A stretch of 64,000 bases of DNA from a virus (IMGVR_UViG_3300027971_000029:32001-96000); one strand, 5' to 3'; numbered from the stretch's first letter, positions 20,576 through 52,986 are shown. Translations and numbers: made by a program. The notes: generated by a model not told the origin, from the letters alone.

Positions 20576-20860
20576 GATAGCTTATTCTGTTACGAGGAAA
20601 GCTATCGAAACCCTAGGCCGTGTTTAGGCAGCCAATGCGAACTGTGAGTCGTTTGCGTTTACTTTTTTTGCTTGATTAACGGTCATCGCCTACCGTGCTG
20701 TCCACTCTGTTACTTGTTGCCCTGTCGAAACTAGTCTCCCCCATCAAAAAGAACCTACTGAATTACGATGCAGTGGTGATTAATTATTTCACCCTCTAAG
20801 TTCTTTTTGGTGGAGGAGGGGGGATTCGCACCCCCGTCCAGAACACTTTTCTCTTTACTT
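20576..20860 (-). ncRNA. ssrA: Two-piece (circularly permuted) tmRNA
   Basis: Acceptor piece with T-arm ends CTCCTCC-A-CCA at 20808; coding piece starts GGGGGAG at 20742 (G3.U70); tag ORF 20656-20624 reads ANDSQFALAA*; outer ends approximate. Confidence 0.9.
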
Positions 20861-21537
20861 CATACAGCAATATCTTGATGTTTCTTCACATAGTAAAGAA
20901 GGTCATCAATGTATTTATGTTTTGTTTCCTCGAATATCTGAGGCAATGTTTCATCATTCACTGCAATAGCTACCACGATTTGTTCGATTGGTAAACCAGT
21001 AATCTCTTCGAACATAATTGCATAAGCACTACATTGCATAAAATAATTTTTGATATGGTCTTTGTCTTTCAACCTGCTTGATGTTTTAAAATCGATGACA
21101 GAAAGTTTTCCTTTCCATTCAGCAATACAATCTACACGACCAGCAACTTTCAATTTATGAGAATACAATGCTTGCTCTAAACAATAGATGTTGCCAATGT
21201 TCTTCATCAATTCAGGTTTCAGTTGAAGAAACATCTCCTTCACATTCGGCATCATCATTTGTATTTTCATATCACTCAATTCATTGAGTAAAAACTTTTC
21301 ACAAACATCATGCACTGAAGTACCACGGCGAGATGCTTGGCTTGATATCTTATTCGCCTGCTCCTCGCCTACTCTCTTACGCCATTCCATGATTGCTTTT
21401 TTATTGTAAGCAGATAGAACAGTGGTGATAGAAGAATACTTCTCACCATTCGGTGTTGTGTATTTTCTTCCAGATTCAGTTGTTACAGCATTTAATTCAA
21501 AATCTAGTTCTGGAAGTTTCACATGGTTAAAAATCAT
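20860..21537 (-). CDS. PD-(D/E)XK exonuclease (Cas4-like phage exonuclease)
   Basis: SITTVL..RGT.VH..E..L..AGRVDCIAE..IDFKTS..YFMQ..AYA. Confidence 0.88.
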   Translation of the reverse strand: MIFNHVKLPELDFELNAVTTESGRKYTTPNGEKYSSITTVLSAYNKKAIMEWRKRVGEEQANKISSQASRRGTSVHDVCEKFLLNELSDMKIQMMMPNVKEMFLQLKPELMKNIGNIYCLEQALYSHKLKVAGRVDCIAEWKGKLSVIDFKTSSRLKDKDHIKNYFMQCSAYAIMFEEITGLPIEQIVVAIAVNDETLPQIFEETKHKYIDDLLYYVKKHQDIAV

Positions 21538-21857
21538 GTAGCGCCAACTCTCTTTGTAATTTTATCAACATGCTTTTTAACAATCTCTTGAGTCCTTGCT
21601 TGTTTAATAGATTTCTTACCATAACGGTGACCATGAGGACTTGCTGGATGCGCCTCTGCAACCTTAGATAACACATCTTTGAAACCATCAGGTACCCGAT
21701 TTTGTGTTGAAGTAGAAACACCAGAAACAATTGCTGGCGCTGTCATTACAGGATGAATGTGTGGATTATTTTTTAGATATTCTTCACGCTCTGAAATTTT
21801 CATAAACGATTCAAACTCTTCACCTGTCTCACTATTCAAAAAATTATATGTTGGCAA
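21534..21857 (-). CDS. FmdB-like small phage protein
   Basis: Probable TTG start at 21857 after GGAG: MPTYNFLN.ETGEEFE.FM.ISE..YLK.NPH. Confidence 0.6.
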   Translation of the reverse strand: MPTYNFLNSETGEEFESFMKISEREEYLKNNPHIHPVMTAPAIVSGVSTSTQNRVPDGFKDVLSKVAEAHPASPHGHRYGKKSIKQARTQEIVKKHVDKITKRVGAT

Positions 21858-22398
21858 AATTTGTCTCCGGATACCAAAGAGGAACTGGTCTCTTCTTCCA
21901 CTTCGCAAGATGCGATTTGTTGTTTATATAGTAGTTGCGATAGGATGCAATAGAATCACCAACAATCTTCACTTCATCAGGCATTGCAGGTGTTGGCTCA
22001 GTAAAGTTTCCTCTTGGAATATTATTTGGTCGAACCTCTAATGCCCAAACAAGTTTTTCGCAAGCATGTTTTTTACCATAGCGATATGTGTATTCTTCAA
22101 GAAGAGATTCGAACATTTCGAATAACCAAGAATAATTTTTATCGCTTTGCCTTACCCAAACTGCTGAAGGATGATTGATATGAGTGGAAGCATAAAGCAA
22201 CTTATCACGATTATCATAAAGAACATATCGGCTTTGCTTTCGACCAGTGTCAGAATGGCCGACAACGATAGTACCATCAAGCACACGATGAGCAGTAGAA
22301 AGTAATTGAGCATATTCTAAAATCATTTTGACCACATGCTTATCGTTATGCATTTCTGCACACTTAGTCACATCATGGTCGAGGTAAAAAATATTCAC
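21844..22398 (-). CDS. Pyrimidine-dimer DNA glycosylase-like protein (DenV superfamily)
   Basis: MNIFYLD..H.DKHVVKMILEYAQLLSTAH..HINHPSAVW..AMPD. Confidence 0.75.
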   Translation of the reverse strand: MNIFYLDHDVTKCAEMHNDKHVVKMILEYAQLLSTAHRVLDGTIVVGHSDTGRKQSRYVLYDNRDKLLYASTHINHPSAVWVRQSDKNYSWLFEMFESLLEEYTYRYGKKHACEKLVWALEVRPNNIPRGNFTEPTPAMPDEVKIVGDSIASYRNYYINNKSHLAKWKKRPVPLWYPETNFANI

Positions 22399-22401
22399 GG
22401 T

Positions 22402-22761
22402 TTAATCCCATCTGCGGTGGTCTTCTGCTACATGTTCCCAACCATCGTATTCACTGATATGCCATTTAACATTATCAGGAATTTCAACGACAGCAAGTTC
22501 GGATGCCCAATTATTTGCGGCTTCACCCATCTCTTCAACTACAGCAACCAAATCTTCATCGGCACGATTTTCGTAAAGGTCATATGCGCTGATATAGAAA
22601 CTTTCATCACCAACATGTCCTTCTTGGAAATATGTGGAGCCAAAAACTTGAGAATCAGATGTTTTCTTTTCCCACTTCACACCCTTGCGGTCAAGCAATT
22701 TCTCTAAAGCCTCTTCGGAAAGACCAAAGCCGCCATGACATCTATTGATTACTACTTTCAT
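22402..22761 (-). CDS. Conserved phage hypothetical protein
   Basis: MKVVINRCHGGFGLS..LVAVVEE.G..VVEIP..W.I.EYDG.E. Confidence 0.7.
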   Translation of the reverse strand: MKVVINRCHGGFGLSEEALEKLLDRKGVKWEKKTSDSQVFGSTYFQEGHVGDESFYISAYDLYENRADEDLVAVVEEMGEAANNWASELAVVEIPDNVKWHISEYDGWEHVAEDHRRWD

Positions 22762-22765
22762 AATT

Positions 22766-23095
22766 TCATTCCTTCAATGGACAGTGTTCATCATAACACA
22801 TACTATCACCAAGTTCACCTCTTGTCAAGCCACATCTGCCGCAGAGTTCATTAGGACTTTTATATTCTTGATATTCCTCTGTTGGAGGATCAAAGTCAGG
22901 TATCTCACCATAGTATTCTTCATCAGACACAAAATCTAAAGTGCCTGAAAAATGAAAACCAGACCCACGCAAAAACATTTCAAATTGTTCTAAAATATCT
23001 GGAAGATAATCTGCACTGAATTCAACAGTTGTTTCGGCACTGCGACCAGAGATGTTGTCAATTTGTTTAAAGATATATTTCATATAAATCTCCAA
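22766..23095 (-). CDS. Hypothetical protein
   Basis: ORF in operon with an SD sequence. Confidence 0.6.
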   Translation of the reverse strand: MEIYMKYIFKQIDNISGRSAETTVEFSADYLPDILEQFEMFLRGSGFHFSGTLDFVSDEEYYGEIPDFDPPTEEYQEYKSPNELCGRCGLTRGELGDSMCYDEHCPLKE

Positions 23096-23107
23096 AAATA
23101 AAAAAAT

Positions 23108-23128
23108 AGGTCTACGGTTAGTAGACCT
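23108..23128 (-). terminator. Intrinsic terminator
   Basis: AGGTCTAC-TAACC-GTAGACCT followed by a T run. Confidence 0.7.
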
Positions 23129-23147
23129 CTAGACCTTGTGAAAAAAA

Positions 23148-23534: not shown

Positions 23535-23626
23535 TTAGACACCTCACATAGTTAATAATACACACATCATAACACAACGAAACCGCTTTGTCAACAGTCT
23601 CGCCACAATATTGCCCATTAGAGCAA

Positions 23627-23876: not shown

Positions 23877-24221
23877 CTATCTTCGCATGTTTGCCTGGTC
23901 TTTTGCATCATCTTTGCTAAAGATTGGCACAGCATTACTTTTGTGCAAAGTGCCAATACCTAGCATGGCATCACCAGTGTACACAGGTTTTGATTTTAGA
24001 GTGCCGCCATTGAATCCAGTGTTCAATGACGGATAACGAGACAAATCACGCTCAGGTGGAATGTAAGTTTTTGGTGGAATGTATGGTGTGAAAGATTTAG
24101 ACTTTTTAGTCTTCACTTTACCATACTTTTTTTCAAGCGATGACAACCACTCTTGGTGTTGTTCAGCTTGTTTTTTCGGTGTCTTTTTTTTCTTAGACCG
24201 ATTGTCAACATAAATCATCAT
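23877..24221 (-). CDS. Conserved phage hypothetical protein
   Basis: YTG..MLGIGTLHKSNAVPIF..MRR C-terminus. Confidence 0.7.
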   Translation of the reverse strand: MMIYVDNRSKKKKTPKKQAEQHQEWLSSLEKKYGKVKTKKSKSFTPYIPPKTYIPPERDLSRYPSLNTGFNGGTLKSKPVYTGDAMLGIGTLHKSNAVPIFSKDDAKDQANMRR

Positions 24222-24436
24222 TTTGCCGTGACCTCATATTTTTGATAACCAACAAAATCTTCTTTTGTGTTCAGAATTATATCAGCCTGAAAGCAAAAAC
24301 GCAAGAAGTCTTTTTCAAAATCTTGGTCATCTGCCAAAATAGAAAGTTGTTCGCCCGAATTCATTTTATTGAGTTTCATGCGAACCTTCAGGATGGGAAT
24401 GGGACACTTCAGTCCACGACAATCAATTGAATGCAT
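24218..24436 (-). CDS. tusA: TusA/SirA-family sulfur carrier
   Basis: IDCRGLKCPIPIL (CPxP)..GEQLSILADD..DF..FC. Confidence 0.88.
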   Translation of the reverse strand: MHSIDCRGLKCPIPILKVRMKLNKMNSGEQLSILADDQDFEKDFLRFCFQADIILNTKEDFVGYQKYEVTAK

Positions 24437-24581: not shown

Positions 24582-25119
24582 GGAAAACTCCTTCTTTATT
24601 CAGATTACAGATACATTATGACACATCTGGAACCGTTTGTCAAGTGCTTTTCCTAAAAAAAGTTGTTTAAAAACAACAACATACAACAGTGGAAATGCGG
24701 TTTTGGGCCGTTTTTCCGCTTGGCTAGGGTCAGAGTCTCAGTGGACAGCTAAAAGCCGCCTAAAAGAGGTTCTAGCCGTGCAGGACTTGAGGTTTTGAAG
24801 ATGAATTTGCCGAAGTGTCTTCACGCATATCTTCTTCAAATTCTTGCAATCTTAATTGTTGCAATCTATGTTTGATTTCAGCATTATTTTTTTGCTGAGT
24901 CTCTAACAATTCTTCAAGTTCTCTAATTTCTTGTTTGATTTTAGAAAGAAAGGTCATATGTTTTTTCCTGTTTATAAAGTCTGTATGTGGCTTTATCTTG
25001 TTGCTTTTTATGATTTGTGTTAGGTTTGAATTGTTGACTATCAGAATCATTTTTTCGATTCTTGTTCTTTGGTTTCCTAACAACCTGCTGATTTGAAATC
25101 ATTGAAGTTTTGCGCCTCC

Positions 25120-25695
25120 TTAAAGAATGCTATCCGCCACTCCAAGACTGATTAGTTGTTCGGCTTTGAGCCACGAGTCAGTCGGCGGTAACAATTTATT
25201 CTTGACTGTTTTTACATCAAGACCAGTTGCATCACATAGAATGTCGACCATGCGCTGATTACATAGGTCGGCTTCTTTCATGTGAGCCTTTATGTCATGG
25301 TACTTTCCTTCTGCCTCTTCGGAAAATTGATGACACATAATTCCTGTATTTTTTGAGATGATTCTTTCACCACGAGTTCCTGCTGAGAAGATGAGGAATG
25401 CCGCAGAGAAAATTGAACCAATGCCGATTGTTCTAATTGGGTACTTTGATTGTTTCATAACATCAATCAAAGCAAATGCTTGATACAAGTCACCGCCGCC
25501 TGAATTAACATACAGTGTCAAAATCTTACCTTCTTCTTCTTTGAAGTTCTCATAGGTAATCCATTCGATAGCTTCACGAATGTTAAATTCATCAATCTCA
25601 CCGCTGAGAAAAAAGATGTGGTTTTCAAGTAGACTGTGCCCAATAAGTTCACTTGGGCTGATAACTTCGTTATCTTTCTTTTTAGTTGTCGCCAT
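25120..25695 (-). CDS. clpP: ClpP-family protease subunit
   Basis: LYVNSGGGD..IGSIFSAA (Ser), IMCHQ (His), DSWL (Asp). Confidence 0.88.
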   Translation of the reverse strand: MATTKKKDNEVISPSELIGHSLLENHIFFLSGEIDEFNIREAIEWITYENFKEEEGKILTLYVNSGGGDLYQAFALIDVMKQSKYPIRTIGIGSIFSAAFLIFSAGTRGERIISKNTGIMCHQFSEEAEGKYHDIKAHMKEADLCNQRMVDILCDATGLDVKTVKNKLLPPTDSWLKAEQLISLGVADSIL

Positions 25696-26635
25696 GTTTA
25701 AGGTGCCAATCATATGCAGTTGAAATAATGTTTTCTAAATTAAATTTTGAAGTAAAGTTGAGAAGTTCCTGCGCCTTGCTTATGTTGGATACAAGCATGG
25801 CAGGGTCGCCCGCACGGCGTGGACCGTAGGTGATGTTAACTTTCTGACCTGTCACTTTTTCAATAGTATCTACAATTTGTTTGTTCGAACATCCTGTGCC
25901 CGAACCAATGTTAAAAATATCACTCTTCTGGTTTTTCAAAAGATACTCAGCACTTGCCACATGTGCATCGGCAACATCTGAAACATGAATAAAGTCTCTG
26001 ATGCAAGTTCCGTCCGGAGTTTCATAGTCATCACCATAGAGTGTAAAGTTATTTAGATTCTGAAGAATTCTAGGAATCAAATGCGTTTCTGGTTCGTGAT
26101 TCTCACCCATCTCACCATCAGGGTCTGCACCACCGACATTGAAATATCTCAAGCAAATTGAATTGATATTCTCTTTCTGCATGTCAGTGAGTATTTGCTC
26201 ACACATTAATTTGTTGCGACCATAAACACTTGTTGGATGACATTCATCAGTTTCAAGAAACTTTTGATTGCCGCTACCATAGACACCAGCACTTGATGAG
26301 AACACAATATTTTTTACATGATGAATTGCCATCTCATTTAGCAGATTGATTGTGCCAGCAACATTCACATCATAATATTCACTTGGATATACCTCACTTG
26401 TGCCAACTTCAATCAAACCTGCTAAATGAAACACTGTATCGATTTTAACTTTACCAAAAAGAAAACTTAGTTCAGGCGCACGAATATCACACGGATAAAA
26501 CATATCAGTATATTCATGTGTTTGTGATTTTGATTTTGAATCAACAACGATAGTTCGCCAACCAGCTTTTTTCAATGCTTTGGTTACATGCGAACCGATA
26601 TAGCCGTAACCGCCAGTAATCAGTGCAGTCTTCAT
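25682..26635 (-). CDS. galE: UDP-glucose 4-epimerase
   Basis: TGGYGYIGSH, FSSSA, YGRNK, LRYFNVGGA and DGTCIRDFIHV motifs. Confidence 0.92.
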   Translation of the reverse strand: MKTALITGGYGYIGSHVTKALKKAGWRTIVVDSKSKSQTHEYTDMFYPCDIRAPELSFLFGKVKIDTVFHLAGLIEVGTSEVYPSEYYDVNVAGTINLLNEMAIHHVKNIVFSSSAGVYGSGNQKFLETDECHPTSVYGRNKLMCEQILTDMQKENINSICLRYFNVGGADPDGEMGENHEPETHLIPRILQNLNNFTLYGDDYETPDGTCIRDFIHVSDVADAHVASAEYLLKNQKSDIFNIGSGTGCSNKQIVDTIEKVTGQKVNITYGPRRAGDPAMLVSNISKAQELLNFTSKFNLENIISTAYDWHLKHGDN

Positions 26636-42815: not shown

Positions 42816-43385
42816 CTTGATACCCTCAGTTCGGCTTCTGGATTGTCCCAACATGCATCACGATAATTGCTTACAAATTCAACCAGACCTTTATAAGTAC
42901 CCCAACCATTCTCAGGCTCAAATATTTTATAATACTCTGGATCAGAGAGTAGGATTTTCAAACCCTCATCTAGATAATATACAATGTTTCTTGCATGAAC
43001 AAACCCATGTTCATCGGGTCGCCATAGTACATTGTATAATGTCAGACCATTAGACACTTTGACTTCACCAGCCATTATAGCCAAATTGTGTGTGATGTTG
43101 CTACTGTATACCGAACAAGGTTGAGTAACCATCAAATCAACATCAAGACTCATCTTTATAATCTTCCATAAAATAATTAATGTACTTCAAAGCCTCTTCA
43201 GCCTCAGGTTCTGTGCATCCATATCGTTCAATCAAAACTGTCTTCATCTCAGCATGTTCCATATATTCAATCAGGTCATCATAGTCCCAATCGAATGTAT
43301 GGTCCATGTCATACCACAGAGACAGTTTGCCGTTTGCATTATAGAATGCATACCAGCAACTATTACTCCATCTGGCGTAACTCAT
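42812..43385 (-). other. Two hypothetical ORFs (42812-43153, 43143-43385)
   Basis: NITHNL..P.NGWGTY motif in the first. Confidence 0.6.
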
Positions 43386-44494: not shown

Positions 44495-44502
44495 AATAAA
44501 CC

Positions 44503-44859
44503 TTATGTATTTCGTGTCATTTGGCGCAAAATTCTAACATTATCATCTGGTGCTAGATAGCATCTCGCATTGATTATGGTTGAATTTTCAAGTAGATTCT
44601 CCATCTTTGTGAATTCGATTAATTTATTCTCAATCATGTATTTGACCAAGTGGTCAGCAACTCTCCATTTGATGGCATCTGGATTCAAACTGATGGTATC
44701 AAAATTTGATAATGTTATGTTCACATTAACAAGTTTACCACCAATAGCAATGTCAGTGTACTTACCAACATAATTGTTGTCCCAAACATCATTAAGAATT
44801 GTAGAACTACCGACACCACCATTCACAATTGGCAGTGCTGTAGAATTAGAAAATGCCAT
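44503..44859 (-). CDS. Hypothetical protein
   Basis: ORF downstream of the tRNA array. Confidence 0.55.
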   Translation of the reverse strand: MAFSNSTALPIVNGGVGSSTILNDVWDNNYVGKYTDIAIGGKLVNVNITLSNFDTISLNPDAIKWRVADHLVKYMIENKLIEFTKMENLLENSTIINARCYLAPDDNVRILRQMTRNT

Positions 44860-44897
44860 ATTTAATCACTCTCATAACTAACTCCTTCATAAAAAAC

Positions 44898-44981
44898 TGG
44901 TGCGAGTGGCGGGACTCGAACCCGCATACCTTGCGGCGGCAGATTTTAAGTCTGCTGTGTATACCATTCCACCACACTCGC
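44898..44981 (-). tRNA. tRNA-Leu(UAA)
   Basis: Cloverleaf, loop CTTAAAA, long variable arm, encoded CCA. Confidence 0.92.
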
Positions 44982-44986
44982 TTGAT

Positions 44987-45061
44987 TGGTCCGGCGTGAG
45001 AGAATCGAACTCCCATCAGAAGGGTAGAAGCCTACTGTACTATCCATTGTACTAACGCCAG
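44987..45061 (-). tRNA. tRNA-Arg(UCU)
   Basis: Loop CTTCTAC, CCA. Confidence 0.88.
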
Positions 45062-45067
45062 AATATT

Positions 45068-45334
45068 TTATTTGAATATTGCAGACCACTTCTGCAATTT
45101 TTGTCGTTTAAGACCTGATGCATTCAGTAATTCTTCTCGGTTAATCATACCTGATTCAACCATCAATTCAATCATGCAATGCAAGTCACCTAACTCTTCA
45201 GTTAATCGTTGCTTATTTGTACGCTCATTGTACATTTCATTTAGACCAAATCGGAAACACTTGCTAATAGCCTGTGTGACCTCTGCACATTCTTCCTGTG
45301 CAATCAACATAATTTCTCTATCAACATCATTCAT
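45068..45334 (-). CDS. MazG-like NTP pyrophosphohydrolase
   Basis: QEECAEVTQAISK..RFG..LTEELGDL. Confidence 0.75.
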   Translation of the reverse strand: MNDVDREIMLIAQEECAEVTQAISKCFRFGLNEMYNERTNKQRLTEELGDLHCMIELMVESGMINREELLNASGLKRQKLQKWSAIFK

Positions 45335-45392
45335 TGTGCTTTCTCCTAATGAATGCATTATAACACAACCACACAGACTTGTGTGGCAATAA

Positions 45393-45476
45393 TGGTGCCC
45401 CAAGAGAGACTCGAACTCTCAATCCTTTCGGCACTGGTTTCTAAGACCAGCGTGTATACCATTCCACCATCGGGGC
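45393..45476 (-). tRNA. tRNA-Leu(UAG)
   Basis: Loop CTTAGAA, long variable arm, CCA. Confidence 0.92.
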
Positions 45477-45503
45477 ATAAATTTGCATTGCTTTTAAATT
45501 ATA

Positions 45504-45698
45504 TTCAACATCTCGTAGCCAGGATTCTGTTTTTACCCTAACATTAATCTTTGCCACAACCCGAATCAATAGCGCAAGTGTTGCCTGACTCTGTTTGTGT
45601 TGCTTGTTATATCACGGTAGTTTAATGCTTTCGCTCCTACACACACTTGCCACAAGTCCTGAACTTCCTCTGTTACCAGCGTTAGGTCGGATGTTGAA
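45504..45698 (-). ncRNA. rnpB: Minimal RNase P RNA (about 195 nt)
   Basis: CR-I-like GAGGAAGTTCAGGA and CR-V-like AACAGAATCCTGGCTA form P4 with a bulged U; P1 TTCAACATC/GATGTTGAA; P2 CCTAAC/GTTAGG; tiny P3. Confidence 0.8.
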
Positions 45699-45704
45699 AT
45701 TCTT

Positions 45705-45780
45705 TGGTGCTACCTAGAGGAATCGAACCTCTTTCAATGGTTCTTCAGACCACCGCTATGACCACATCAGCTAAAGTAGC
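45705..45780 (-). tRNA. tRNA-Phe(GAA)
   Basis: Loop CTGAAGA, CCA. Confidence 0.9.
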
Positions 45781-45781
45781 A

Positions 45782-45855
45782 TGGTGCTCTCACCGAGAAT
45801 TGAACTCAGAATTCATCCTTACCAAGGATGTGTTATACCACTTAACTATGAGAGC
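45782..45855 (-). tRNA. tRNA-Thr(GGU)
   Basis: Loop TTGGTAA, CCA. Confidence 0.88.
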
Positions 45856-45862
45856 GATTGAA

Positions 45863-46059
45863 TTTGTAAGTAGTTTCACCCATATTATTGAAACCATTCA
45901 CCTTAGTATATAAAGCCGGCAAGGTCTCGGTACGCCACTTGGGATACTCAACAAAGGTGCTCCGATGCGTTTACGGGACTCGAACCCGTCCTTCTTTTTC
46001 ATTAGTTGGCTCTTCGAAGAAGCCTTCTAGCGAGTCTTTCTCTTGCTGACACTTACAAA
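45863..46059 (-). ncRNA. Unassigned structured RNA (about 197 nt) with an embedded T-arm
   Basis: Closing stem TTTGTAAGT/ACTTACAAA, several internal helices, ACGGG-TTCGAGT-CCCGT. Confidence 0.6.
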
Positions 46060-46062
46060 ACT

Positions 46063-46137
46063 TGGTACCTTGTGACGGGATTGAACCGCCGACCTTCTCC
46101 GTGTAAAAGAGTTACTCTACCGCTGAGTTAACAAGGC
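46063..46137 (-). tRNA. tRNA-Val(UAC)
   Basis: Loop TTTACAC, CCA. Confidence 0.88.
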
Positions 46138-46140
46138 AAA

Positions 46141-46716
46141 TTACATAGTGGGACCGTTGCCGTTTTTAAAGCCAACGGAACCACCTTCTTCATTGATTCT
46201 CTTAATCACATCTTCAAAGAGAATTGGTCTAAAATCTGTTTGTTCTACACAAACACAATGGTAACGGGTGTCAATTTCATATTCACCCCACACTTCAGTC
46301 TTCACACGGTTTGAATGGGTGTGACCATGAATGTTTGTACCAAAACGACCTAGACTGTCACTATGAATTGGGATATGACTAAGAATCATTCCATTCATTA
46401 CATGATATGCTCTCAATTCACGAAAATGAATTCTGTATTCATCATCACGAAAGATATCATGGTTACCACGAATCAGAACTTTATCACCATTCAGCCTGTG
46501 CATGATGCTAAGTGCCTTTCGGTTGATTACAACATCACCGAGGTGGTACACTTTATCATTTGGTCGAACAGTTTCGTTCCATCGCTTGACCATTTCTTCA
46601 TCCATATCTTCTGGATTGTCCCATGGTCTTAATTTCGTTACTCCGTCATCACGAAGAAACTTACACACTCCAGCATGACCAAAATGTGTGTCACTTGTTA
46701 AAAATACTGAAGGCAT
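46141..46716 (-). CDS. Calcineurin-like metallophosphoesterase
   Basis: SDTHFGH, HLGD, RGNHD, SHIP and HGHTH motifs. Confidence 0.9.
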   Translation of the reverse strand: MPSVFLTSDTHFGHAGVCKFLRDDGVTKLRPWDNPEDMDEEMVKRWNETVRPNDKVYHLGDVVINRKALSIMHRLNGDKVLIRGNHDIFRDDEYRIHFRELRAYHVMNGMILSHIPIHSDSLGRFGTNIHGHTHSNRVKTEVWGEYEIDTRYHCVCVEQTDFRPILFEDVIKRINEEGGSVGFKNGNGPTM

Positions 46717-46739
46717 AATTTTCTCCTATTAATTCGCTT

Positions 46740-46815
46740 TGGGTTGTGCTATGAGGATTGAACTCATACTATCTCGGTCACAGCGAGAGGTGCAGACCAC
46801 TACACTAAGCACAAC
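46740..46815 (-). tRNA. tRNA-His(GUG)
   Basis: Loop CTGTGAC, G-1:C73, CCA. Confidence 0.9.
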
Positions 46816-46845
46816 CCAAAACAAATTGGTATCATAAATATAAGG

Positions 46846-47088
46846 ATGTTTTGGACCATTGTCATCATAAGCGTTGGTATTATATCACCAAACATTCAAT
46901 ATGTGGGGCAATTTACAGAAGAAGCCCAATGTACGAATGCTTTGGCAACTCTGAAGACTCAAACTTATCCACCGCAAGTAAAACTAACATGCGCTCAATT
47001 TCCTGAGCCACCGATACCTCCTGCGCCACCGCCACCAGCTAAAGTCACACCAAAAGAATCAATATCTTCAAAAGATGCTAAGAAATGA
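46846..47088 (+). CDS. Small exported/membrane protein with Pro-rich tail
   Basis: CATAAATA late promoter at 46833-46840; hydrophobic N-terminus, two Cys. Confidence 0.6.
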   Translation: MFWTIVIISVGIISPNIQYVGQFTEEAQCTNALATLKTQTYPPQVKLTCAQFPEPPIPPAPPPPAKVTPKESISSKDAKK

Positions 47089-47576
47089 TTGACCCGTTTA
47101 CAGCATTTGCATTAGCACAAGGTGCTGTTGCTGGTATTAAAAAAGCAATTGCATTAGGCAAAGACATTAATGGTCTTATACATGAATTCAGTGCATTCTA
47201 CAAAGCCGCTGATGATGTACATCACTCGGCAGTAAAAGCTAAAATAGATTCTATTCGCATGAGTAATGCTGAGATAAGTGCCAGAGCATTACAAATTGCT
47301 ATGGCATCAAGAGCATTAAGACAACATGAAAAAGAACTCAAAGACATTCTATTTTGGTCTGGTAATGCTGAAGTCTATTATGAAATGCAAGCAGAACGAA
47401 AAAGAATGATAGATGAGCGTCAAGCAGAAGAAAAAAGAGTAGAAGAGCAAAAACAAAAAGACCGTGAAGCCAAAGCAAGGGCTATGATGGGCACTCTTTG
47501 GATTATGGGTTCTCTTTGCATTGTCATACCAATGTGTACAATTCTCTTTCAACTGATAACAGTCAAACATTTATAA
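47085..47576 (+). CDS. Coiled-coil protein with C-terminal TM helix
   Basis: MIDPFTAFALAQGAV..; ATGA overlap with the upstream ORF. Confidence 0.7.
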   Translation: MIDPFTAFALAQGAVAGIKKAIALGKDINGLIHEFSAFYKAADDVHHSAVKAKIDSIRMSNAEISARALQIAMASRALRQHEKELKDILFWSGNAEVYYEMQAERKRMIDERQAEEKRVEEQKQKDREAKARAMMGTLWIMGSLCIVIPMCTILFQLITVKHL

Positions 47577-47650
47577 TGGAGCGGAGTGAGAGAATCGAAC
47601 TCTCAACGGAAGATTGGAAATCTACAGTTTTACCATTAAACTAACCCCGC
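47577..47650 (-). tRNA. tRNA-Gly(UCC)
   Basis: Loop TTTCCAA, U73, CCA. Confidence 0.9.
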
Positions 47651-47732
47651 AAATGCACCGATGCTTATTCAAGCAGAAGCAATGTTCGGTGCCACACAAA
47701 GGCAAGATTTAAAAAGAGCCTGCACTCTATAC

Positions 47733-47807
47733 TGGAGCGGGTAGAGGGAATCGAACCCTCAACTAAACCTTGGCAAGGTCTTGTGTTACCACTAGCACCA
47801 TACCCGC
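47733..47807 (-). tRNA. tRNA-Gly(GCC)
   Basis: Loop TTGCCAA, U73, CCA. Confidence 0.92.
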
Positions 47808-47810
47808 ATA

Positions 47811-48299
47811 CTACGCCTCAGCTAATTCTTGTTCAGCCAAGATTCTTTTCAGTCTATCAGCACAGAAACTTGCGGCTGGCGCATCTGGCTTGACCATTGG
47901 TGTCACATTACATGTACCTTTGATATAACCAATTGCTTGTTGCACTACGCAAGAACTTCCGTGTTCATCAGATTTGTTCAAGTCCAAATGAACTTCAACA
48001 TGTCTATCTTCAAGCACATCGGCTAACGATTGAAACAATTCTGAAACCTTGTAGACTTCAGTCATCAATCTCATAGCAGGTTTGCTTTTCTTGTGGTCAT
48101 AATCTAATTCACGAGTTAAAAAACCGAAAATCTTACAGCCATGGCGTCCATCAATATGAACTACAACAGCCAATGCATAATCTGCATACCACACGCCGTC
48201 AACTCTAACTCTTTCTGAATCAGCACCGAGATATACTTTCGTGTCAGGTCCTTGATTCACAATGAATTGTTTCACTTTTTCGATTTCAAAATTTTTCAT
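47811..48299 (-). CDS. RNase H-like YkuK-family protein
   Basis: YLGADS, RLMTEV, EVHLDLN and KPDAPAAS..AD motifs. Confidence 0.75.
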   Translation of the reverse strand: MKNFEIEKVKQFIVNQGPDTKVYLGADSERVRVDGVWYADYALAVVVHIDGRHGCKIFGFLTRELDYDHKKSKPAMRLMTEVYKVSELFQSLADVLEDRHVEVHLDLNKSDEHGSSCVVQQAIGYIKGTCNVTPMVKPDAPAASFCADRLKRILAEQELAEA

Positions 48300-48315
48300 A
48301 GATACTTCTTTCTTA

Positions 48316-48390
48316 TGGCACCCCGCCAGGGATTCGAACCCCGTCCCACGGTTTTGGAGACCGTCATGCTGCCGTTAACACCAGCGAGAT
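48316..48390 (-). tRNA. tRNA-Trp(CCA)
   Basis: Loop CTCCAAA, G73. Confidence 0.9.
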
Positions 48391-48393
48391 ATA

Positions 48394-48468
48394 TGGTCCT
48401 CTCGAAAGGAATCGAACCTTAGGTCTTTCGGTTATCAGCCGAATGCTCTACCATTAAGCTACAAGAGG
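48394..48468 (-). tRNA. tRNA-Ile(GAU)
   Basis: Loop CTGATAA. Confidence 0.9.
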
Positions 48469-48473
48469 AAACT

Positions 48474-48548
48474 TGGCGGGTCCTGAGAGAATCGAACTCC
48501 CACTCGTAGGTTCGTAGCCTACTGTAATATCCATTTTACTAAAGACCC
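48474..48548 (-). tRNA. tRNA-Arg(ACG)
   Basis: Loop CTACGAA. Confidence 0.9.
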
Positions 48549-48552
48549 ATAT

Positions 48553-48627
48553 TGGTGGTGATAGTTGGATTCGAGCCAACGACCTACTGCGTATGAAGCA
48601 GTTGCACTACCGCTGTGCTATATCACC
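48553..48627 (-). tRNA. tRNA-Met(CAU), probably elongator
   Basis: Loop TTCATAC, G1:C72. Confidence 0.85.
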
Positions 48628-48631
48628 ATAT

Positions 48632-48707
48632 TGGTTGCAGAGGCAGGATTCGAACCTGCGGTTCTTGGCTTATGAGACCAAGCGGATGACCACTTCCATA
48701 CTCTGCG
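48632..48707 (-). tRNA. tRNA-fMet(CAU)-like
   Basis: Loop CTCATAA, C1xA72 mismatch. Confidence 0.8.
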
Positions 48708-48712
48708 ACAAT

Positions 48713-48789
<77 letters not shown>

Positions 48790-48798
48790 ATAAAAACT

Positions 48799-48872
48799 TG
48801 GTGCCCCATGACAGAATCGAACTGCCGTAACCTGATTACAAAACAGGTGTAATACCATTATACTAATAGGGC
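48799..48872 (-). tRNA. tRNA-Thr(UGU)
   Basis: Loop TTTGTAA. Confidence 0.9.
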
Positions 48873-48966
48873 GAAATAGGTGTCGGGCTTCCACCGACTG
48901 CTAATCAAACTACTCTGAACTCAGAGGTGATTAATCTGCCTTGATACAATCTTCAAGGACTTTTAT

Positions 48967-49044
48967 TGGTCTGTGTGGTTGGATTCGAACCAACGGCTCC
49001 TCACTTCCAAGGCGAGATGTCTGACCTGACTGACATACACACAG
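48967..49044 (-). tRNA. tRNA-Pro(UGG), second copy
   Basis: Loop CTTGGAA, C1:G72. Confidence 0.82.
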
Positions 49045-49050
49045 ATAAAA

Positions 49051-49124
49051 TGGTGGAGGATAAGAGAATCGAACTCTTGTGACTAACTTGCAAGGCTAGT
49101 ATAATACCATTATATGAATCCCCC
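49051..49124 (-). tRNA. tRNA-Ala(UGC)
   Basis: Loop CTTGCAA, G3.U70. Confidence 0.9.
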
Positions 49125-49180
49125 GAAATATGTGATTGACTACTTATCTCATTATACGCCATCAATCAAGGCGAGTTATA

Positions 49181-49256
49181 TGGCTCCACAGGGTGGGTTC
49201 GAACCACCGACCAAATGATTAACAGTCATCTACTCTACCGACTGAGCTACTGCGGA
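49181..49256 (-). tRNA. tRNA-Asn(GUU)
   Basis: Loop CTGTTAA, G73. Confidence 0.92.
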
Positions 49257-49262
49257 ATATTC

Positions 49263-49625
49263 TTAAACTAAATCGTGTGTCAAATTTACGCTAGTCGAGT
49301 AGTAGCCGTTAGACTCACCAAACCAACGAACATCAACATAACCTTTGCGTGTTGCAAATTTGTAGAATGTCCACTCAACACACTCGTGGTTCATAGCATC
49401 AAACTCAACTGGTGTTTCACCTGATACCTCTTCAGCCATCAATAGTGGTTCACCTTCTAAGTCTGACAAGTCACCAACGATATCTTCTATCGAAACAGAC
49501 TCACAACAATCTTGGTAATGAAGGAAAGTGAATACTTCTTTATCATTAGCAAATGTCATTGTTTCGCCATCTTGTGTCACCGATGTGAACACTTTACCTA
49601 TCATATTCTCTATATTCATTTTCAA
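49263..49625 (-). CDS. Conserved phage hypothetical protein
   Basis: HYQDCCESV.IEDI.GD..WTFYKFAT.KG.V..RW.GESNGYYS. Confidence 0.75.
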   Translation of the reverse strand: MKMNIENMIGKVFTSVTQDGETMTFANDKEVFTFLHYQDCCESVSIEDIVGDLSDLEGEPLLMAEEVSGETPVEFDAMNHECVEWTFYKFATRKGYVDVRWFGESNGYYSTSVNLTHDLV

Positions 49626-49642
49626 CTCCTTACAAAAAAACT

Positions 49643-49717
49643 TGGCGGTTCGTAGGGGTAACGATCCCCTTCTTTATGCGTGACAGGCATATGTGCGTCC
49701 ATGAACACTTACGAACC
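49643..49717 (-). tRNA. tRNA-Asp(GUC)
   Basis: Loop CTGTCAC, G73. Confidence 0.88.
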
Positions 49718-49721
49718 AAAT

Positions 49722-49807
49722 TGGTGGAGACAGATGGATTCGAACCACCGTGCTTTTTACAGAACAGATTTACAGTCTGCCGCCTTCAGCCACTCGGCCA
49801 TATCTCC
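49722..49807 (-). tRNA. tRNA-Tyr(GUA)
   Basis: Loop CTGTAAA, long variable arm. Confidence 0.92.
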
Positions 49808-49815
49808 AAAACTTT

Positions 49816-49890
49816 TGGTAGGGGTACAGAGAATCGAACTCTGATTAATAGGTTAAAAGCCTACTACTTTAGCCGTTAAGTTATACCCCC
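49816..49890 (-). tRNA. tRNA-Lys(UUU)
   Basis: Loop CTTTTAA. Confidence 0.9.
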
Positions 49891-49976
49891 AAACTTTACC
49901 ATAGAAAAACACATTAGTCTCAAAAAGCGTAACAGCAGTTTTCACCGACAGGCTTATGAGATAATGCGTTTATCTA

Positions 49977-50051
49977 TGGTACTCAGTACGGGAGTCGAAC
50001 CCGTCTTTCCAGATTGAAAGTCTAGCGACCTAACCGATAGTCGAACTGAGC
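49977..50051 (-). tRNA. tRNA-Glu(UUC)
   Basis: Loop CTTTCAA. Confidence 0.9.
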
Positions 50052-50064
50052 ATAAGCAATGCAA

Positions 50065-50131
50065 ATTTTTAAAGAACTTATCGATTTCTCAACCGATGCA
50101 TGAAGTATAACAGAACTGTAGGTTTTGTCAA
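50065..50131 (-). promoter_or_regulatory. tRNA operon promoter plus boxA-like antiterminator
   Basis: TTGACA-N16-TATACT (50104-50131), then GTTCTTTAAAAAT (50065-50077). Confidence 0.7.
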
Positions 50132-50182
50132 CATCTTTTTTTCATACTGTTACAAAAATACAACACAACTTCTATTTGCAAT

Positions 50183-50259
50183 TGGAGTGCGTGACAGGAA
50201 TCGAACCTGCATAAAACGGATTTGCAATCCGACACCTAACCGTTCAGTAGCACACGCAC
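50183..50259 (-). tRNA. tRNA-Cys(GCA)
   Basis: Loop TTGCAAA, U73. Confidence 0.9.
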
Positions 50260-50266
50260 ATAAAAT

Positions 50267-50345
50267 TGGTACCCTTGCTCAGATTCGAACTGAGAGAACT
50301 CTTCCTTTTGAGAGAAGCGACTTTACCAGATTTGTCCACAAGGGC
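50267..50345 (-). tRNA. tRNA-Leu(CAA) with short variable loop
   Basis: Loop CTCAAAA; 6-nt variable region. Confidence 0.82.
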
Positions 50346-50346
50346 A

Positions 50347-50421
50347 TGGTAGACTGAAAGAGAATTGAACTCTTACTCGACCGATTATGAGTCGGCTGCT
50401 TTACCATTAAGCTATCAGTCT
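50347..50421 (-). tRNA. tRNA-Ile2(CAU, lysidine-type) probable
   Basis: Anticodon arm GCCGA-CTCATAA-TCGGT resembles ileX. Confidence 0.75.
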
Positions 50422-50663
50422 TCTTTTTCTAAATCTTGTTCGAGTCTTTGTTCTTGTATCGTTTTCTCTTTGAAAACTTTTCTAGGATTACTGCACATCA
50501 CACATCTAGGATTACCACAATTCATAGCATGATGTTTTGCGAACTTGTGAGGTTCATCAACAACAATGCCGAACTCTTTAGCAATCTTAACTTGTTTCTT
50601 CACTGCATTGTCTGTTTCGAAAATGCGTTTAGAATGCTTGATTTTTTCTTCTTCATGCGACAT
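50415..50663 (-). CDS. Small basic hypothetical protein with Cys motif
   Basis: MSHEEEKIKHS..CGNPRCVMCSNPRK; start corrected to 50663 (AGGAG SD). Confidence 0.7.
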   Translation of the reverse strand: MSHEEEKIKHSKRIFETDNAVKKQVKIAKEFGIVVDEPHKFAKHHAMNCGNPRCVMCSNPRKVFKEKTIQEQRLEQDLEKED

Positions 50664-50683
50664 ACCAACTCCTTTTAAGAAAA

Positions 50684-50771
50684 TGGCAGAGAGTATCAGA
50701 TTCGAACTGATGCACCCATTTCTGAATGACGGTTTAGCAAACCGCTGGTTTAACCACTCACCCAACTCTCT
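50684..50771 (-). tRNA. tRNA-Ser(GCU)
   Basis: Loop TTGCTAA, long arm, G73. Confidence 0.92.
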
Positions 50772-50778
50772 ATAAACT

Positions 50779-50867
50779 TGGCGGAAGAACTGAGATTCGA
50801 ACTCAGGGACCTTGTTACAGTCGGCAGTTTTCAAGACTGCTGGTTTAAACCACTCACCCACTCTTCC
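50779..50867 (-). tRNA. tRNA-Ser(UGA)
   Basis: Loop CTTGAAA, long arm, G73. Confidence 0.92.
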
Positions 50868-50951
50868 AATATCATAGAAAAACACACTTCGAATACTGTA
50901 CTAAACAGAAACTATCCATCACGGGCTCCCCCGCTGAAATGTGTTTATCTA

Positions 50952-51025
50952 TGGCAGGGGATACAAGAATCGAACTTGTACTAACAGATTCAAAGTCTGC
51001 TGTGCTACCACTACACAAATCCCCA
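50952..51025 (-). tRNA. tRNA-Gln(UUG)
   Basis: Loop CTTTGAA, U1:A72, G73. Confidence 0.9.
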
Positions 51026-51039
51026 ACAAAGCAATGCAA

Positions 51040-51088
51040 ATTTTTAAAGAACTGTAGTCAGTGTAACAGAAGTCGATGCATCTGTCAA
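51040..51088 (-). promoter_or_regulatory. tRNA operon promoter plus boxA-like element
   Basis: TTGACA-N17-TACACT (51060-51088); GTTCTTTAAAAAT (51040-51052). Confidence 0.7.
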
Positions 51089-51118
51089 GCAACCTAAGTT
51101 GCTATTTTTTACAACTAC

Positions 51119-51156
51119 AAACAAAAATCCCCTAGTTTTTTAGGCTAGGGGATTTT
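51119..51156 (-). terminator. Intrinsic terminator (attenuator 3:4 hairpin)
   Basis: AAAATCCCCTAG-N9-CTAGGGGATTTT followed by TGTTT. Confidence 0.85.
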
Positions 51157-51181
51157 GGTTTATTTTGTATTGGTTACAAAG

Positions 51182-51298
51182 TTAGCAAAATCCCCATTGT
51201 GTTCCATAATCCGCACCTGTATTAATTGAGCATGGGCGTGACTCAACCTGCCAGAGTGCGGCGGGGCTTAACTTAAAGAAATGGGATATATTTTGCAT
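51182..51298 (-). CDS. Putative attenuator leader peptide containing all 20 amino acids
   Basis: MQNISHFFKLSPAALWQVESRPCSINTGADYGTQWGFC*; ATG at the predicted +1 of the promoter at 51305-51333. Confidence 0.7.
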   Translation of the reverse strand: MQNISHFFKLSPAALWQVESRPCSINTGADYGTQWGFC

Positions 51299-51304
51299 CA
51301 TATT

Positions 51305-51333
51305 ATTATATATGTTTTTTTATTGCTTGTCAA
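51305..51333 (-). promoter_or_regulatory. Perfect consensus sigma70 promoter of the leader peptide
   Basis: TTGACA-N17-TATAAT. Confidence 0.85.
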
Positions 51334-51656
51334 GTGTTTTCTTCGGAAATATTTGGATTAATTTGTAAATTTTCTACAACATGATTCCAAACTTCTTCTG
51401 ACTGCTCATCTGCAAGTGCATTTTCCAATTCTTCCACACTTGATCCATCACGAACATCTTCCCACAATTTATAGAATGAATCATCTAAATTTTTCTGAAT
51501 GTCCTCTAGCGAACCTTCAAGATAAAACAATGCCTCATTGATATCTTCAGGTGTCGATTGTTCAACACCATTAGCGATTACTCGAAATGTTGAATAGAAA
51601 GATTTAAGGCGAATTACTTCTTGTTCTAATTGGCTTAATTGATAATAATATTTCAT
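51330..51656 (-). CDS. Hypothetical acidic protein
   Basis: ORF with SD. Confidence 0.6.
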   Translation of the reverse strand: MKYYYQLSQLEQEVIRLKSFYSTFRVIANGVEQSTPEDINEALFYLEGSLEDIQKNLDDSFYKLWEDVRDGSSVEELENALADEQSEEVWNHVVENLQINPNISEENT

Positions 51657-51667
51657 AACGATTCCTT

Positions 51668-52174
51668 TTAATTTTGCGGGCTAACATAAACATTCACATT
51701 CAGCGTTGAGCCGATTTGTGCGGGGCGATTTGTACGAACTGTCATGTATCTTCCATTGTAATCTACAGTCATATTGTATCCTTCAGGTGATGATACTGTT
51801 TGATATGTGGTAAAGCATTGTGTCTGGACTTGTGATTGTTGCGACATTGATTTATCAATCTTACCGCCAACTATTGCACCAGTCACAGCACCAATTGCTG
51901 TTGATATACCTTGACCAATACCGCCACCTACTTGATGACCAAGAATGCCACCAGCAACACCACCAATCACTGTTCCTGTAGTGCCATCACTGCTAGGTGA
52001 AACTACACTCACTTGCCTACATGATTGCGATGGGACATTCTGCATTGAAAACACAGGCTCAACACTCACAACTCTAGCAACATCATGGAACTGTAATTGA
52101 TTGTTAGGTGTCAATGCATTCTGTGCAAAGACTATACTAGGTGCAATCAACAATGCAAGAACTGTCTTTCTCAT
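51668..52174 (-). CDS. Glycine-zipper 2TM exported protein (YcfJ-like)
   Basis: Signal peptide; GTVIGGVAGGILGHQVGGG..GAVTGAIVG. Confidence 0.85.
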   Translation of the reverse strand: MRKTVLALLIAPSIVFAQNALTPNNQLQFHDVARVVSVEPVFSMQNVPSQSCRQVSVVSPSSDGTTGTVIGGVAGGILGHQVGGGIGQGISTAIGAVTGAIVGGKIDKSMSQQSQVQTQCFTTYQTVSSPEGYNMTVDYNGRYMTVRTNRPAQIGSTLNVNVYVSPQN

Positions 52175-52473
52175 ACTTCTTCTCCGATAGAAAAATTGAA
52201 ACCCTTAATAGAATCCCAGCGAAATGAACGCCATTCATCTTTCTCAACATCAAACACCGATTGTGATTCTTCACTCTTCTTGCGAGTAGAGGTTCCTTTT
52301 GGAATCATATCGAAAGGAATCAAATCTTCTTTCAGTGTAGCCTTAATCACTCGCTCACTTAAATCTTTTTTAGTGAATGTGATTGACACAACACCTTCTT
52401 GCAATATGGCTCGAAGCCAATTCTTTTCTTTTTCACTCTTAAACACAAATTCATCATTCATAAACATCTCCAT
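52171..52473 (-). CDS. WYL_2/Sm-like SH3 barrel protein
   Basis: ITFTKKD.SER...ATL..VFDVEK.EWRSFRWD. Confidence 0.75.
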   Translation of the reverse strand: MEMFMNDEFVFKSEKEKNWLRAILQEGVVSITFTKKDLSERVIKATLKEDLIPFDMIPKGTSTRKKSEESQSVFDVEKDEWRSFRWDSIKGFNFSIGEEV

Positions 52474-52841
52474 TACGATTCAGACAGATACATCTTAACA
52501 CGATCCGCATAGTTTGTCAAGTAATCTTTTATCCAATTGGGCGAAGTATTGGTCTTTCTTAGAATGCAACCATAGATGCTCATGTCAGATAAATTTTTGG
52601 CATAGACAATTGGGTCACTGAAGACTGCCTCAAAGTTTTCATCAAGAATCGGCACATTGTCATCATTGGTCTTGAACAGAATTACATGATACAAGTCACC
52701 AAAATCATTGCCCTTAACTTTCAGTCCTCTAGTCTCAGCATTGTTGAATGTGAAATACTGAAACTGTGTGCTATCATCATCCTCCGGGTCTGGTACGAAA
52801 TAGAATCCATCGTAATCGGTAGGTTTAGGATGTAATGACAT
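52473..52841 (-). CDS. Hypothetical protein
   Basis: ORF in operon. Confidence 0.55.
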   Translation of the reverse strand: MSLHPKPTDYDGFYFVPDPEDDDSTQFQYFTFNNAETRGLKVKGNDFGDLYHVILFKTNDDNVPILDENFEAVFSDPIVYAKNLSDMSIYGCILRKTNTSPNWIKDYLTNYADRVKMYLSES

Positions 52842-52986
52842 GCAGTTCCTTTTGATAGTTTTGTTTGTTCTTTGGGCGTGAATACACTTTTACACTCAAC
52901 TCTACCCGTTGGCGATATTTAGGTGTGCGTAAATCTTTTGCAACTAGGTTGCGAGGTTTTAGTGAAAGTTTCATAATGTGTGCCAT
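52825..52986 (-). CDS. ArfA-like small basic protein
   Basis: Not in ORF track. ..NLVAKDLRTPKYRQRVELSVKVYSRPKNK..; AGGTG SD; promoter 53023-53051. Confidence 0.55.
   Translation of the reverse strand: MAHIMKLSLKPRNLVAKDLRTPKYRQRVELSVKVYSRPKNKQNYQKELHVITS

Follow-up and report, generated by a model that had tools for sequence, protein, structure and literature searches.

Translation-related accessory genes of a putative T4-like phage: one rescue system or separately inherited modules?

Introduction

When genes that could each support translation lie scattered through one phage genome, do they form a single system, or have they been inherited separately? The question is raised by a 64,000-nucleotide stretch of viral DNA (hereafter the window; IMGVR_UViG_3300027971_000029:32001-96000), which covers bases 32001-96000 of a 124,557-bp linear IMG/VR virus record with 38% G+C and an estimated completeness of 76%. 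Between positions 20,576 and 52,986 of the window, the original prediction placed a complete set of transfer RNAs (tRNAs), an RNase P-like RNA, a transfer-messenger RNA (tmRNA), a ClpP-like protease, an ArfA-like protein, the sulfur and iron-sulfur (Fe-S) proteins TusA and IscU/ErpA, and a candidate attenuator encoding all 20 amino acids. These were proposed to act as one sense-replace-process-rescue system that keeps translation running when host defences cleave tRNA or mRNA.

Recent work has linked the tRNAs of phages to evasion of defences that cut tRNA, and large phages that combine a tRNA array with a tmRNA are already known. By comparing the window with related viruses, we arrive at a different view: on balance, the accessory genome of this phage probably consists of several separately inherited modules and not of one integrated system.

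Results

Distribution of the components among related viruses

The components were surveyed in 29 records: 25 of the larger records selected by a tmRNA motif, the phage studied here (G000), its relatives G002 and G003, and the named Phage C48C1. Records entered the set through the tmRNA motif or through polymerase similarity, many of them are fragments, and the counts take no account of kinship. Across this set, TusA was found in 2 of 29 records, the ArfA-like gene in 4, IscU in 9 and an A-type carrier (the family of ErpA) in 13; ClpP was found in 12 of 28.

Ten records were compared closely, namely the eight with a completeness of at least 90%, G000 and C48C1, and these carry ClpP, TusA, IscU/ErpA and the ArfA-like gene in nearly every combination. 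G000 has all of these along with a tmRNA, and G020 has all except TusA. G033 and G034 have a tmRNA (below threshold in G034), ClpP, IscU and the A-type carrier and lack TusA and the ArfA-like gene; G003 has a one-piece tmRNA, ClpP, TusA and the A-type carrier and lacks IscU and the ArfA-like gene; and G022 has a tmRNA, ClpP and the ArfA-like gene and lacks TusA, IscU and the A-type carrier. In G024, a tmRNA, IscU and the A-type carrier occur without ClpP, TusA or the ArfA-like gene, G002 and G019 have a tmRNA and none of the other five components, and C48C1 has IscU and none of the others, tmRNA included. Independent distribution of the parts across genomes had been named in the original prediction as evidence that would speak against a single system, and the ten records display it in qualitative terms.

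The pairing of tmRNA with tRNA arrays departs from this pattern. Arrays of at least 22 tRNAs accompany a tmRNA in seven of the eight records that are at least 90% complete (G033 has 6 tRNAs), and in G002 and G019 the tmRNA occurs with 22-24 tRNAs. Judged by gene content, the parts appear separable except for this pairing, which is a qualitative result.

IscU and ErpA in a nucleotide-synthesis operon

Both Fe-S proteins are what they were predicted to be, in that IscU (58927-59310, minus strand) scores 221.7 bits with TIGR01999 (cut-off 192.4) and the ErpA/A-type carrier (58619-58936, minus strand) 89 bits with TIGR00049 (cut-off 58.8), the ErpA equivalog NF010147 reaching 110.3, slightly under 117. 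Their location was not as predicted: the pair occupies 58619-59310, outside the interval 20576-52986. There it forms the end of a run of genes in the order thyX, nrdA, GATase-like open reading frame (ORF), thioredoxin, nrdB, iscU and erpA, in which the ends and starts of the ORFs overlap or abut. The first five lie at 59310-63684 on the minus strand (PF02511, PF02867, PF00085 and PF00268), and the iscU-erpA pair overlaps the nrdB stop. An A-type carrier immediately follows IscU in all eight IMG/VR records with IscU, and in the PHROGs classification the IscU family belongs to the auxiliary metabolic genes. Most simply, IscU and ErpA would serve the adjacent nucleotide-synthesis enzymes as an iron and Fe-S supply.

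ClpP, its small neighbour and TusA

A ClpP-like protease and a TusA are both encoded in the window, as proposed. The ClpP-family serine protease (197 aa; 25120-25713, minus strand) matches PF00574 at 103.5 bits, and its Ser103, His128 and Asp179 align with the solved ClpP 3q7h_A, giving an intact Ser-His-Asp triad; it misses the cut-off of the NCBIfam ClpP equivalog (77 vs 308.6). The gene lies 4.2 kb from the tmRNA, amid accessory genes rather than head genes. The TusA-family sulfur carrier (72 aa; 24218-24436, minus strand) matches PF01206 at 61 bits, scores 42.7 with the NCBIfam TusA equivalog (under the cut-off of 78), and has at residues 11-14 a Cys-Pro-x-Pro, which we take to be the conserved TusA motif. 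The TusA partners IscS (PF00266) and MnmA (PF03054) gave no match in the 124.6-kb record. Sulfur and Fe-S supply for tRNA modification, the role first suggested for TusA and IscU/ErpA, gains no support from this result or from the placement of IscU/ErpA in an operon for deoxynucleoside triphosphate synthesis.

Directly downstream of ClpP is a 103-aa coiled-coil-like ORF (24772-25083, minus strand) that has only one Pfam match, below cut-off, and no PHROG match. Its homologue adjoins ClpP in four of the eight tabulated ClpP-bearing tmRNA loci. The order ClpP, 103-aa ORF, TusA is common to G000 and G003, and ClpP with the 103-aa ORF recurs without TusA.

At another tmRNA locus, L247 (8371-12380, from G039, with the same arrangement in G021 and G023), which belongs to an unrelated phage lineage, the genes flanking a permuted tmRNA encode a 270-aa ClpP-like protease, Acb1 (anti-CBASS), an RNA ligase (PF09414) and DHFR. 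No PF09414 RNA ligase was found in the record of the phage studied here.

A two-piece tmRNA

The predicted tmRNA is also confirmed, and it is a permuted, two-piece one (20533-20920, minus strand), called by ARAGORN as 'tmRNA*' at 20533-20900. In gene positions, ARAGORN places the 3' tRNA domain at 55-93, followed by the 5' domain at 159-184 and a tag, ANDSQFALAA, at 245-277. Both Rfam models exceed their thresholds (RF04321, 139.8 bits, threshold 47; RF01850, 122.9 bits, threshold 84), and the RNA can be aligned with the tmRNA of G002. SmpB (PF01668) gave no match in the 124.6-kb record (estimated to be 76% complete), so that host SmpB would be needed by the tmRNA.

A 26-nt motif from the tmRNA core matches at least 120 IMG/VR viral contigs, in 100 of which ARAGORN calls a permuted tmRNA at the locus, and RF01850 is above threshold in 21 of the 25 motif-selected records, with four more below threshold at E≤1e-20. 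The 16 distinct phage tags all end in AA, and all differ apart from one identical pair, from G037 and G002. Most of the other relatives have a two-piece tmRNA near an SSB-like gene; that of G003 is a one-piece tmRNA (G003:C1:28445-28796, plus strand; RF00023, 83.6 bits) inside the tRNA array, and it was missed by ARAGORN. It appears that tmRNA was acquired more than once among these relatives.

Two neighbours of the tmRNA encode a YfaZ-like protein of outer-membrane type with a signal-like N-terminus (20112-20549, minus strand; PF07437, E 7e-4, below cut-off) and a cell-wall hydrolase (19135-19701, minus strand; PF07486, 84.9 bits).

The tRNA array

Twenty-nine tRNA genes occupy 44898-51025 on the minus strand. 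By ARAGORN they cover all 20 amino acids, and all 29 end in an encoded CCA, as had been claimed; Rfam detects 28 of them. The gene that Rfam misses, because it falls below the reporting level, is tRNA-Asp(GTC) (49643-49717, minus strand); its acceptor, anticodon and T stems are full, but its D stem is only 3 bp long and its T loop is unusual. Completeness for the 20 amino acids therefore depends on ARAGORN in the case of Asp. Third codon positions of the phage are 73% A/T, and the U34 and G34 anticodons of the array fit this preference for codons ending in A or T.

Between the tRNA genes are small ORFs for MazG-like, metallophosphatase, RNaseH_like (PF04308) and DUF7448 proteins. A megablast search with positions 44000-52000 against phage records gave matches to single tRNAs only. 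The RNaseH_like gene (47811-48299, minus strand) is conserved (72% identity) within the G002 array and beside the tRNAs of G006, and the metallophosphatase (46141-46716) is 64% identical to one within the array of G003.

The proposed processor and sensor

Two of the proposed parts found no support. The RNase P-like RNA had been placed in an intergenic gap of the array (45477-45704, minus strand, with the candidate itself at 45504-45698). Rfam yielded no RNase P at E≤1 over the window and none at E≤10 when 601 nt were searched under lax filters, and RF00010 had no match in the whole record. The candidate folds no better than ordinary sequence (z-score -1.23, with 20 of 200 shuffles folding equally well), and blastn returned no match to it in 2.56 Mb of loci, most of them from related phages and some containing tRNA arrays of their own. 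A 10-nt motif of the conserved RNase P core was uninformative, with 33 matches at up to two mismatches vs 29 by chance. Another gap, of 197 nt (45856-46062), has a fold z-score of -0.23 and no Rfam match.

The supposed attenuator corresponds to a small stand-alone unit (51124-51333, minus strand) made up of a 12/12 sigma-70-type promoter, a 39-aa ORF (51182-51301) and a strong 15-bp bidirectional terminator, with about 170 nt folding at a z-score of -4.8. It had been singled out for encoding all 20 amino acids, a content that is at chance level: this is the one ORF among 295 short ORFs to hold all 20 residues, and shuffled windows contain 1.65 on average and at least one in 50 of 60 shuffles. 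Nor can the terminator of the unit gate the array, because a second promoter (51088-51060) lies between it and the first tRNA, tRNA-Gln. The sole copy of the unit that we found, at locus L258, is 97% identical; in G002 only the terminator matches, and the body of the ORF is not conserved. The unit could be a gene for a small RNA or for a 39-aa peptide.

A probably ArfA-related family at the head of the array

The ArfA-like gene (52825-52986, minus strand) encodes a small basic protein of 53 aa belonging to a DUF7230-like family. It is the first gene behind a promoter at 53051-53023 and has its own terminator-promoter-Shine-Dalgarno arrangement. On its own, the ORF has no Pfam, NCBIfam or PHROG match; the Pfam ArfA family PF03889 does not match the protein at E≤10 and has no match in six frames, and the control, E. 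coli ArfA, scores 89.5 bits. The predicted resemblance to ArfA is partly confirmed, through links between the family of the ORF and ArfA.

The ORF has 107 homologues of 44-68 aa with a nearly invariant core, many of which match Pfam DUF7230, and the family matches 481 viral contigs. When compared by BLASTP with E. coli ArfA (NC_000913.3), the protein aligns over 17 residues at the same position, with an E-value of 0.001 for this single comparison. As the family alignment was widened, the hhalign probability for ArfA rose from 12% to 34% and then to 70.5%, the last with an E-value of 3.9e-5 and over ArfA residues 11-48. A profile search of 1.84 billion representatives recovered 641 cluster representatives at E≤0.001, and among the best 150 of these 641, 59 match DUF7230 and 4 match PF03889 (best E 4.6e-8). 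Intermediate sequences combine the core of the DUF7230-like family with an ArfA-like KKGKGS stretch. In a profile search of the PDB with the family, ArfA accounted for four of five matches and was top-ranked, but with an E-value of 0.22. Taken at the sequence level, the DUF7230-like family is probably related to ArfA.

Over ArfA residues 11-48, the two families have in common the core N..(A)..L..P.(F/Y)R.RV and a basic tail. The phage ORF, in contrast, has a 3-residue gap at GKG and N-K in place of K-H, and among the members of its family K-H is kept by many and KKGKGS by a few; in ArfA, the GKG loop and the K-H motif are described as binding the mRNA channel (PMC8012679). The length of the phage protein is near that of active truncated ArfA, 54-55 aa according to the same source. 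Unlike the E. coli gene, the phage ORF ends at an ordinary stop codon with no evident control by non-stop mRNA, and it is paired with a WYL_2 gene. An ArfA annotation in a phage is already in print (g10 of phage RXM; PMC8953757), and a literature search for "DUF7230" found no paper. A tblastn search of 50,697 phage records, with the 53-aa ORF and the family member P0292 as queries, returned nothing, a result that does not establish absence, as filtering may remove short basic queries.

The end of the ArfA-like ORF overlaps the start of a 122-aa ORF of no family (52473-52841, minus strand), which is followed by a gene for a WYL_2 Sm-like protein (52171-52473, minus strand; PF10902, 58.6 bits). 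Among 80 viral loci (L260-L339), the WYL_2 gene lies beside the ArfA-like gene in 78, and the 122-aa ORF intervenes in 45. Of the 58 loci with at least 3 kb of downstream sequence, 30 have a tRNA no more than 3 kb downstream of the ArfA-like gene, compared with 1 of 60 loci that have a tRNA upstream. From this synteny, the ArfA-like gene, the 122-aa ORF and the WYL_2 gene look like a conserved cassette, and much of the ArfA-like/WYL_2/tRNA neighbourhood may be inherited gene order.

Source of the window

We take several large ORFs of the record to resemble the gp43 polymerase, UvsX, gp41, gp32 and gp6 of T4. Among named records, the nearest is Phage C48C1, whose circular genome of 156 kb is classified in Kyanoviridae; its IscU is 78% identical to that of the window, and its order of replication genes is similar. 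Relatives with 93-99% polymerase identity are short contigs only, and the next tier, at about 59% identity, includes G002 (163 kb) and G003 (176 kb), both of which are near-complete genomes. The DNA runs in which 2.2 kb of the window were found are labelled as freshwater or lake metagenomes; 14 runs, from several studies, contained at least 55% of the sampled words. A freshwater T4-like myophage forms part of the explanation that best accommodates these data.

Contigs from RNA libraries (four freshwater runs), compared with positions 44001-64000, matched pieces at 52925-53139, 52567-52779 and 45512-45662 and parts of the region of IscU and ribonucleotide reductase. They speak to presence only and not to transcription, transcript ends or levels; DNA carry-over is possible, and bins without coverage are uninformative.

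Discussion

Several modules or one system

If the accessory genome is made up of separately inherited modules, as we think somewhat more likely than not, their roles can be suggested from the identities, positions, synteny and distribution of the genes; it is from these that we infer every function as well as any link to host defence. One module, for the upkeep of translation, would comprise the 29-tRNA array, the two-piece tmRNA and, at the head of the array, the promoter-driven cassette running from the ArfA-like gene to WYL_2. Its tRNAs would stand in for host tRNAs that are poorly matched, degraded or under attack, and its tmRNA, together with host SmpB, would release ribosomes stalled on broken mRNA. 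The ArfA-like protein, with its own stop codon and the length of an active truncated ArfA, may bind the empty mRNA channel, either as a constitutive second route of rescue or as a ribosome-binding mimic. Bacterial ArfA is limited by tmRNA-dependent control (PMC8012679), which the phage protein would escape, being made from an ordinary stop-terminated ORF. A second module, in the variable region next to the tmRNA, would consist of ClpP and its small partner ORF, with TusA in two lineages only; here ClpP may clear tagged products, and any use it made of tmRNA tags would require host ClpX. The third would be IscU-ErpA, within the thyX-nrdA-thioredoxin-nrdB operon, supplying Fe-S clusters and iron for nucleotide synthesis. 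Since the record lacks SmpB, IscS, MnmA and the PF09414 RNA ligase, host partners would be required throughout.

The idea that all of the parts form one system sustaining translation under a defence that cleaves tRNA or mRNA draws on the presence of the tRNA set, the tmRNA, the ArfA-like protein and ClpP in a single genome, and on a tmRNA tag that ends in LAA, the end of SsrA tags recognised by ClpX. It is further encouraged by the other tmRNA-bearing lineage in which the tmRNA lies beside Acb1 and an RNA ligase, and by the published proposal that phage tRNAs evade anticodon nucleases (PMC10264068). Of its four proposed activities, replacement (the tRNAs) and rescue (the tmRNA, the ArfA-like protein and possibly ClpP) do correspond to real genes, some of them physically linked; sensing by an attenuator and processing by RNase P do not. 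With the sensor and the processor unsupported, with the remaining components assorting in nearly every combination (TusA in only two records), with IscU/ErpA belonging to a nucleotide-synthesis operon, and with the parts spread over 38 kb that contain many unrelated genes, we regard a single system as very unlikely. A role of some of these genes against tRNA-cleaving defences is possible (PMC10264068).

Two other explanations would join the parts differently. ClpP, TusA, IscU and ErpA might all be auxiliary metabolic genes for sulfur and Fe-S metabolism, unrelated to translation rescue: IscU, A-type carriers and ClpP are listed together as Fe-S-related genes of T4-like viral genomes (PMC5332604), TusA belongs to a sulfur carrier family, and the overlap of IscU-ErpA with the end of nrdB and the PHROGs classification of IscU point the same way. 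This we find rather unlikely for a set in which ClpP and TusA lie 33 kb from IscU/ErpA and in which G003 and G022 have ClpP but no IscU, and G024 and C48C1 IscU but no ClpP; moreover, ClpP is more often near the tmRNA. That same proximity, together with the adjacency of the two genes in an unrelated lineage, would be expected if tmRNA and ClpP were a phage tag-and-degrade pair that recycles host or aborted proteins to amino acids early in infection and has no part in counter-defence. The AA endings of the 16 otherwise nearly all different tags accord with such a pair, and phage tmRNA has been suggested to tag host proteins for recycling (PMC9004378). However, ClpP is absent from three of the eight complete tmRNA-bearing records, and a ClpP-like gene is present in only 11 of 120 tmRNA loci. 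In the T4-like lineage, both genes lie in one variable stretch beside an SSB-like gene, at two different positions, so their proximity may be inherited order, and the sole AAA protein scanned (43385-44494) is a generic PF00004 AAA ATPase, no search having been aimed at ClpX or SspB. A dedicated recycling pair seems to us unlikely.

Several observations weigh against the modular reading itself. The independent assortment on which it depends can be taken only qualitatively, because a tmRNA motif or polymerase similarity decided which records were included, many of them are fragments, and kinship is left uncorrected. G000, G020 and G022 have the tmRNA, ClpP and the ArfA-like gene in common, so this part of the set may travel together. 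Of the 12 ClpP-bearing records, 8 have the gene no more than 7 kb from the tmRNA, which favours a link between the two. They include G021, G023 and G039, which have no flanking genes in common with the phage studied here and in which about 100 nt separate the 270-aa ClpP-like gene from the tmRNA.

Comparison with known systems

Much of what the window contains has precedents. Two-piece tmRNAs have been published (53 among 18,146 phage genomes, 50 of them aquatic, as reported in PMC9004378), as have IscU, A-type carriers and ClpP in T4-like viral genomes (PMC5332604), and the combination of tRNA arrays with tmRNA is, by published accounts, routine in cluster C mycobacteriophages. The Methylophilales phage Melnitz described in the first of these reports likewise carries a permuted ssrA in a T4-like aquatic phage of about 140-170 kb; it has 4 tRNAs vs 29 here, and its ssrA is grouped there with alphaproteobacterial ones, whereas the tmRNA of the window fits the betaproteobacterial model RF01850 (PMC9004378). 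As a further difference, Rfam reported no glutamine riboswitch here at E≤1. Cluster C mycobacteriophages are similar in joining a large tRNA array to a tmRNA in a lytic myovirus (32-34 tRNAs and one tmRNA are described for C1 phages) and differ in host group and in that the tmRNA here is in two pieces. The Fe-S genes reported from T4-like viruses are patchy among relatives, as here, but in the window IscU/ErpA overlap the end of nrdB in the thioredoxin-nrdA-thyX operon, and TusA is near ClpP (PMC5332604). As in the bacterial SsrA-ClpXP system, the phage tag ends in ALAA and the phage ClpP has an intact triad; in contrast to it, the phage record is without SmpB, and every partner would be supplied by the host.

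Two things are left as new: an ArfA-related family found with a WYL_2 partner at tRNA arrays, and the repeated occurrence of ClpP close to the tmRNA. From the sequences of the family and their setting, one could go further and regard the DUF7230-like proteins as a phage branch of ArfA, acting as constitutive, stop-terminated rescue factors or as channel binders with WYL_2 at the head of tRNA arrays; with the phage tmRNA and, in some lineages, ClpP, they would then give these phages a two-route ribosome rescue of their own. This is a tentative proposal, which we would not yet expect to hold.

Implications

That the reading of these genes as one toolkit fails when relatives are compared guards against over-reading auxiliary genes that happen to be co-located in a phage genome. 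What stands out is the small, unannotated DUF7230 family, with its look of an ArfA relative and its ties to a WYL_2 gene and to tRNA arrays. A two-route rescue capacity carried by the phage, if it exists, would be of use in infections during which mRNA or tRNA is cleaved, and if the ArfA-like family acts on ribosomes, it would represent a new and easily testable piece of the way in which phages manage host translation.

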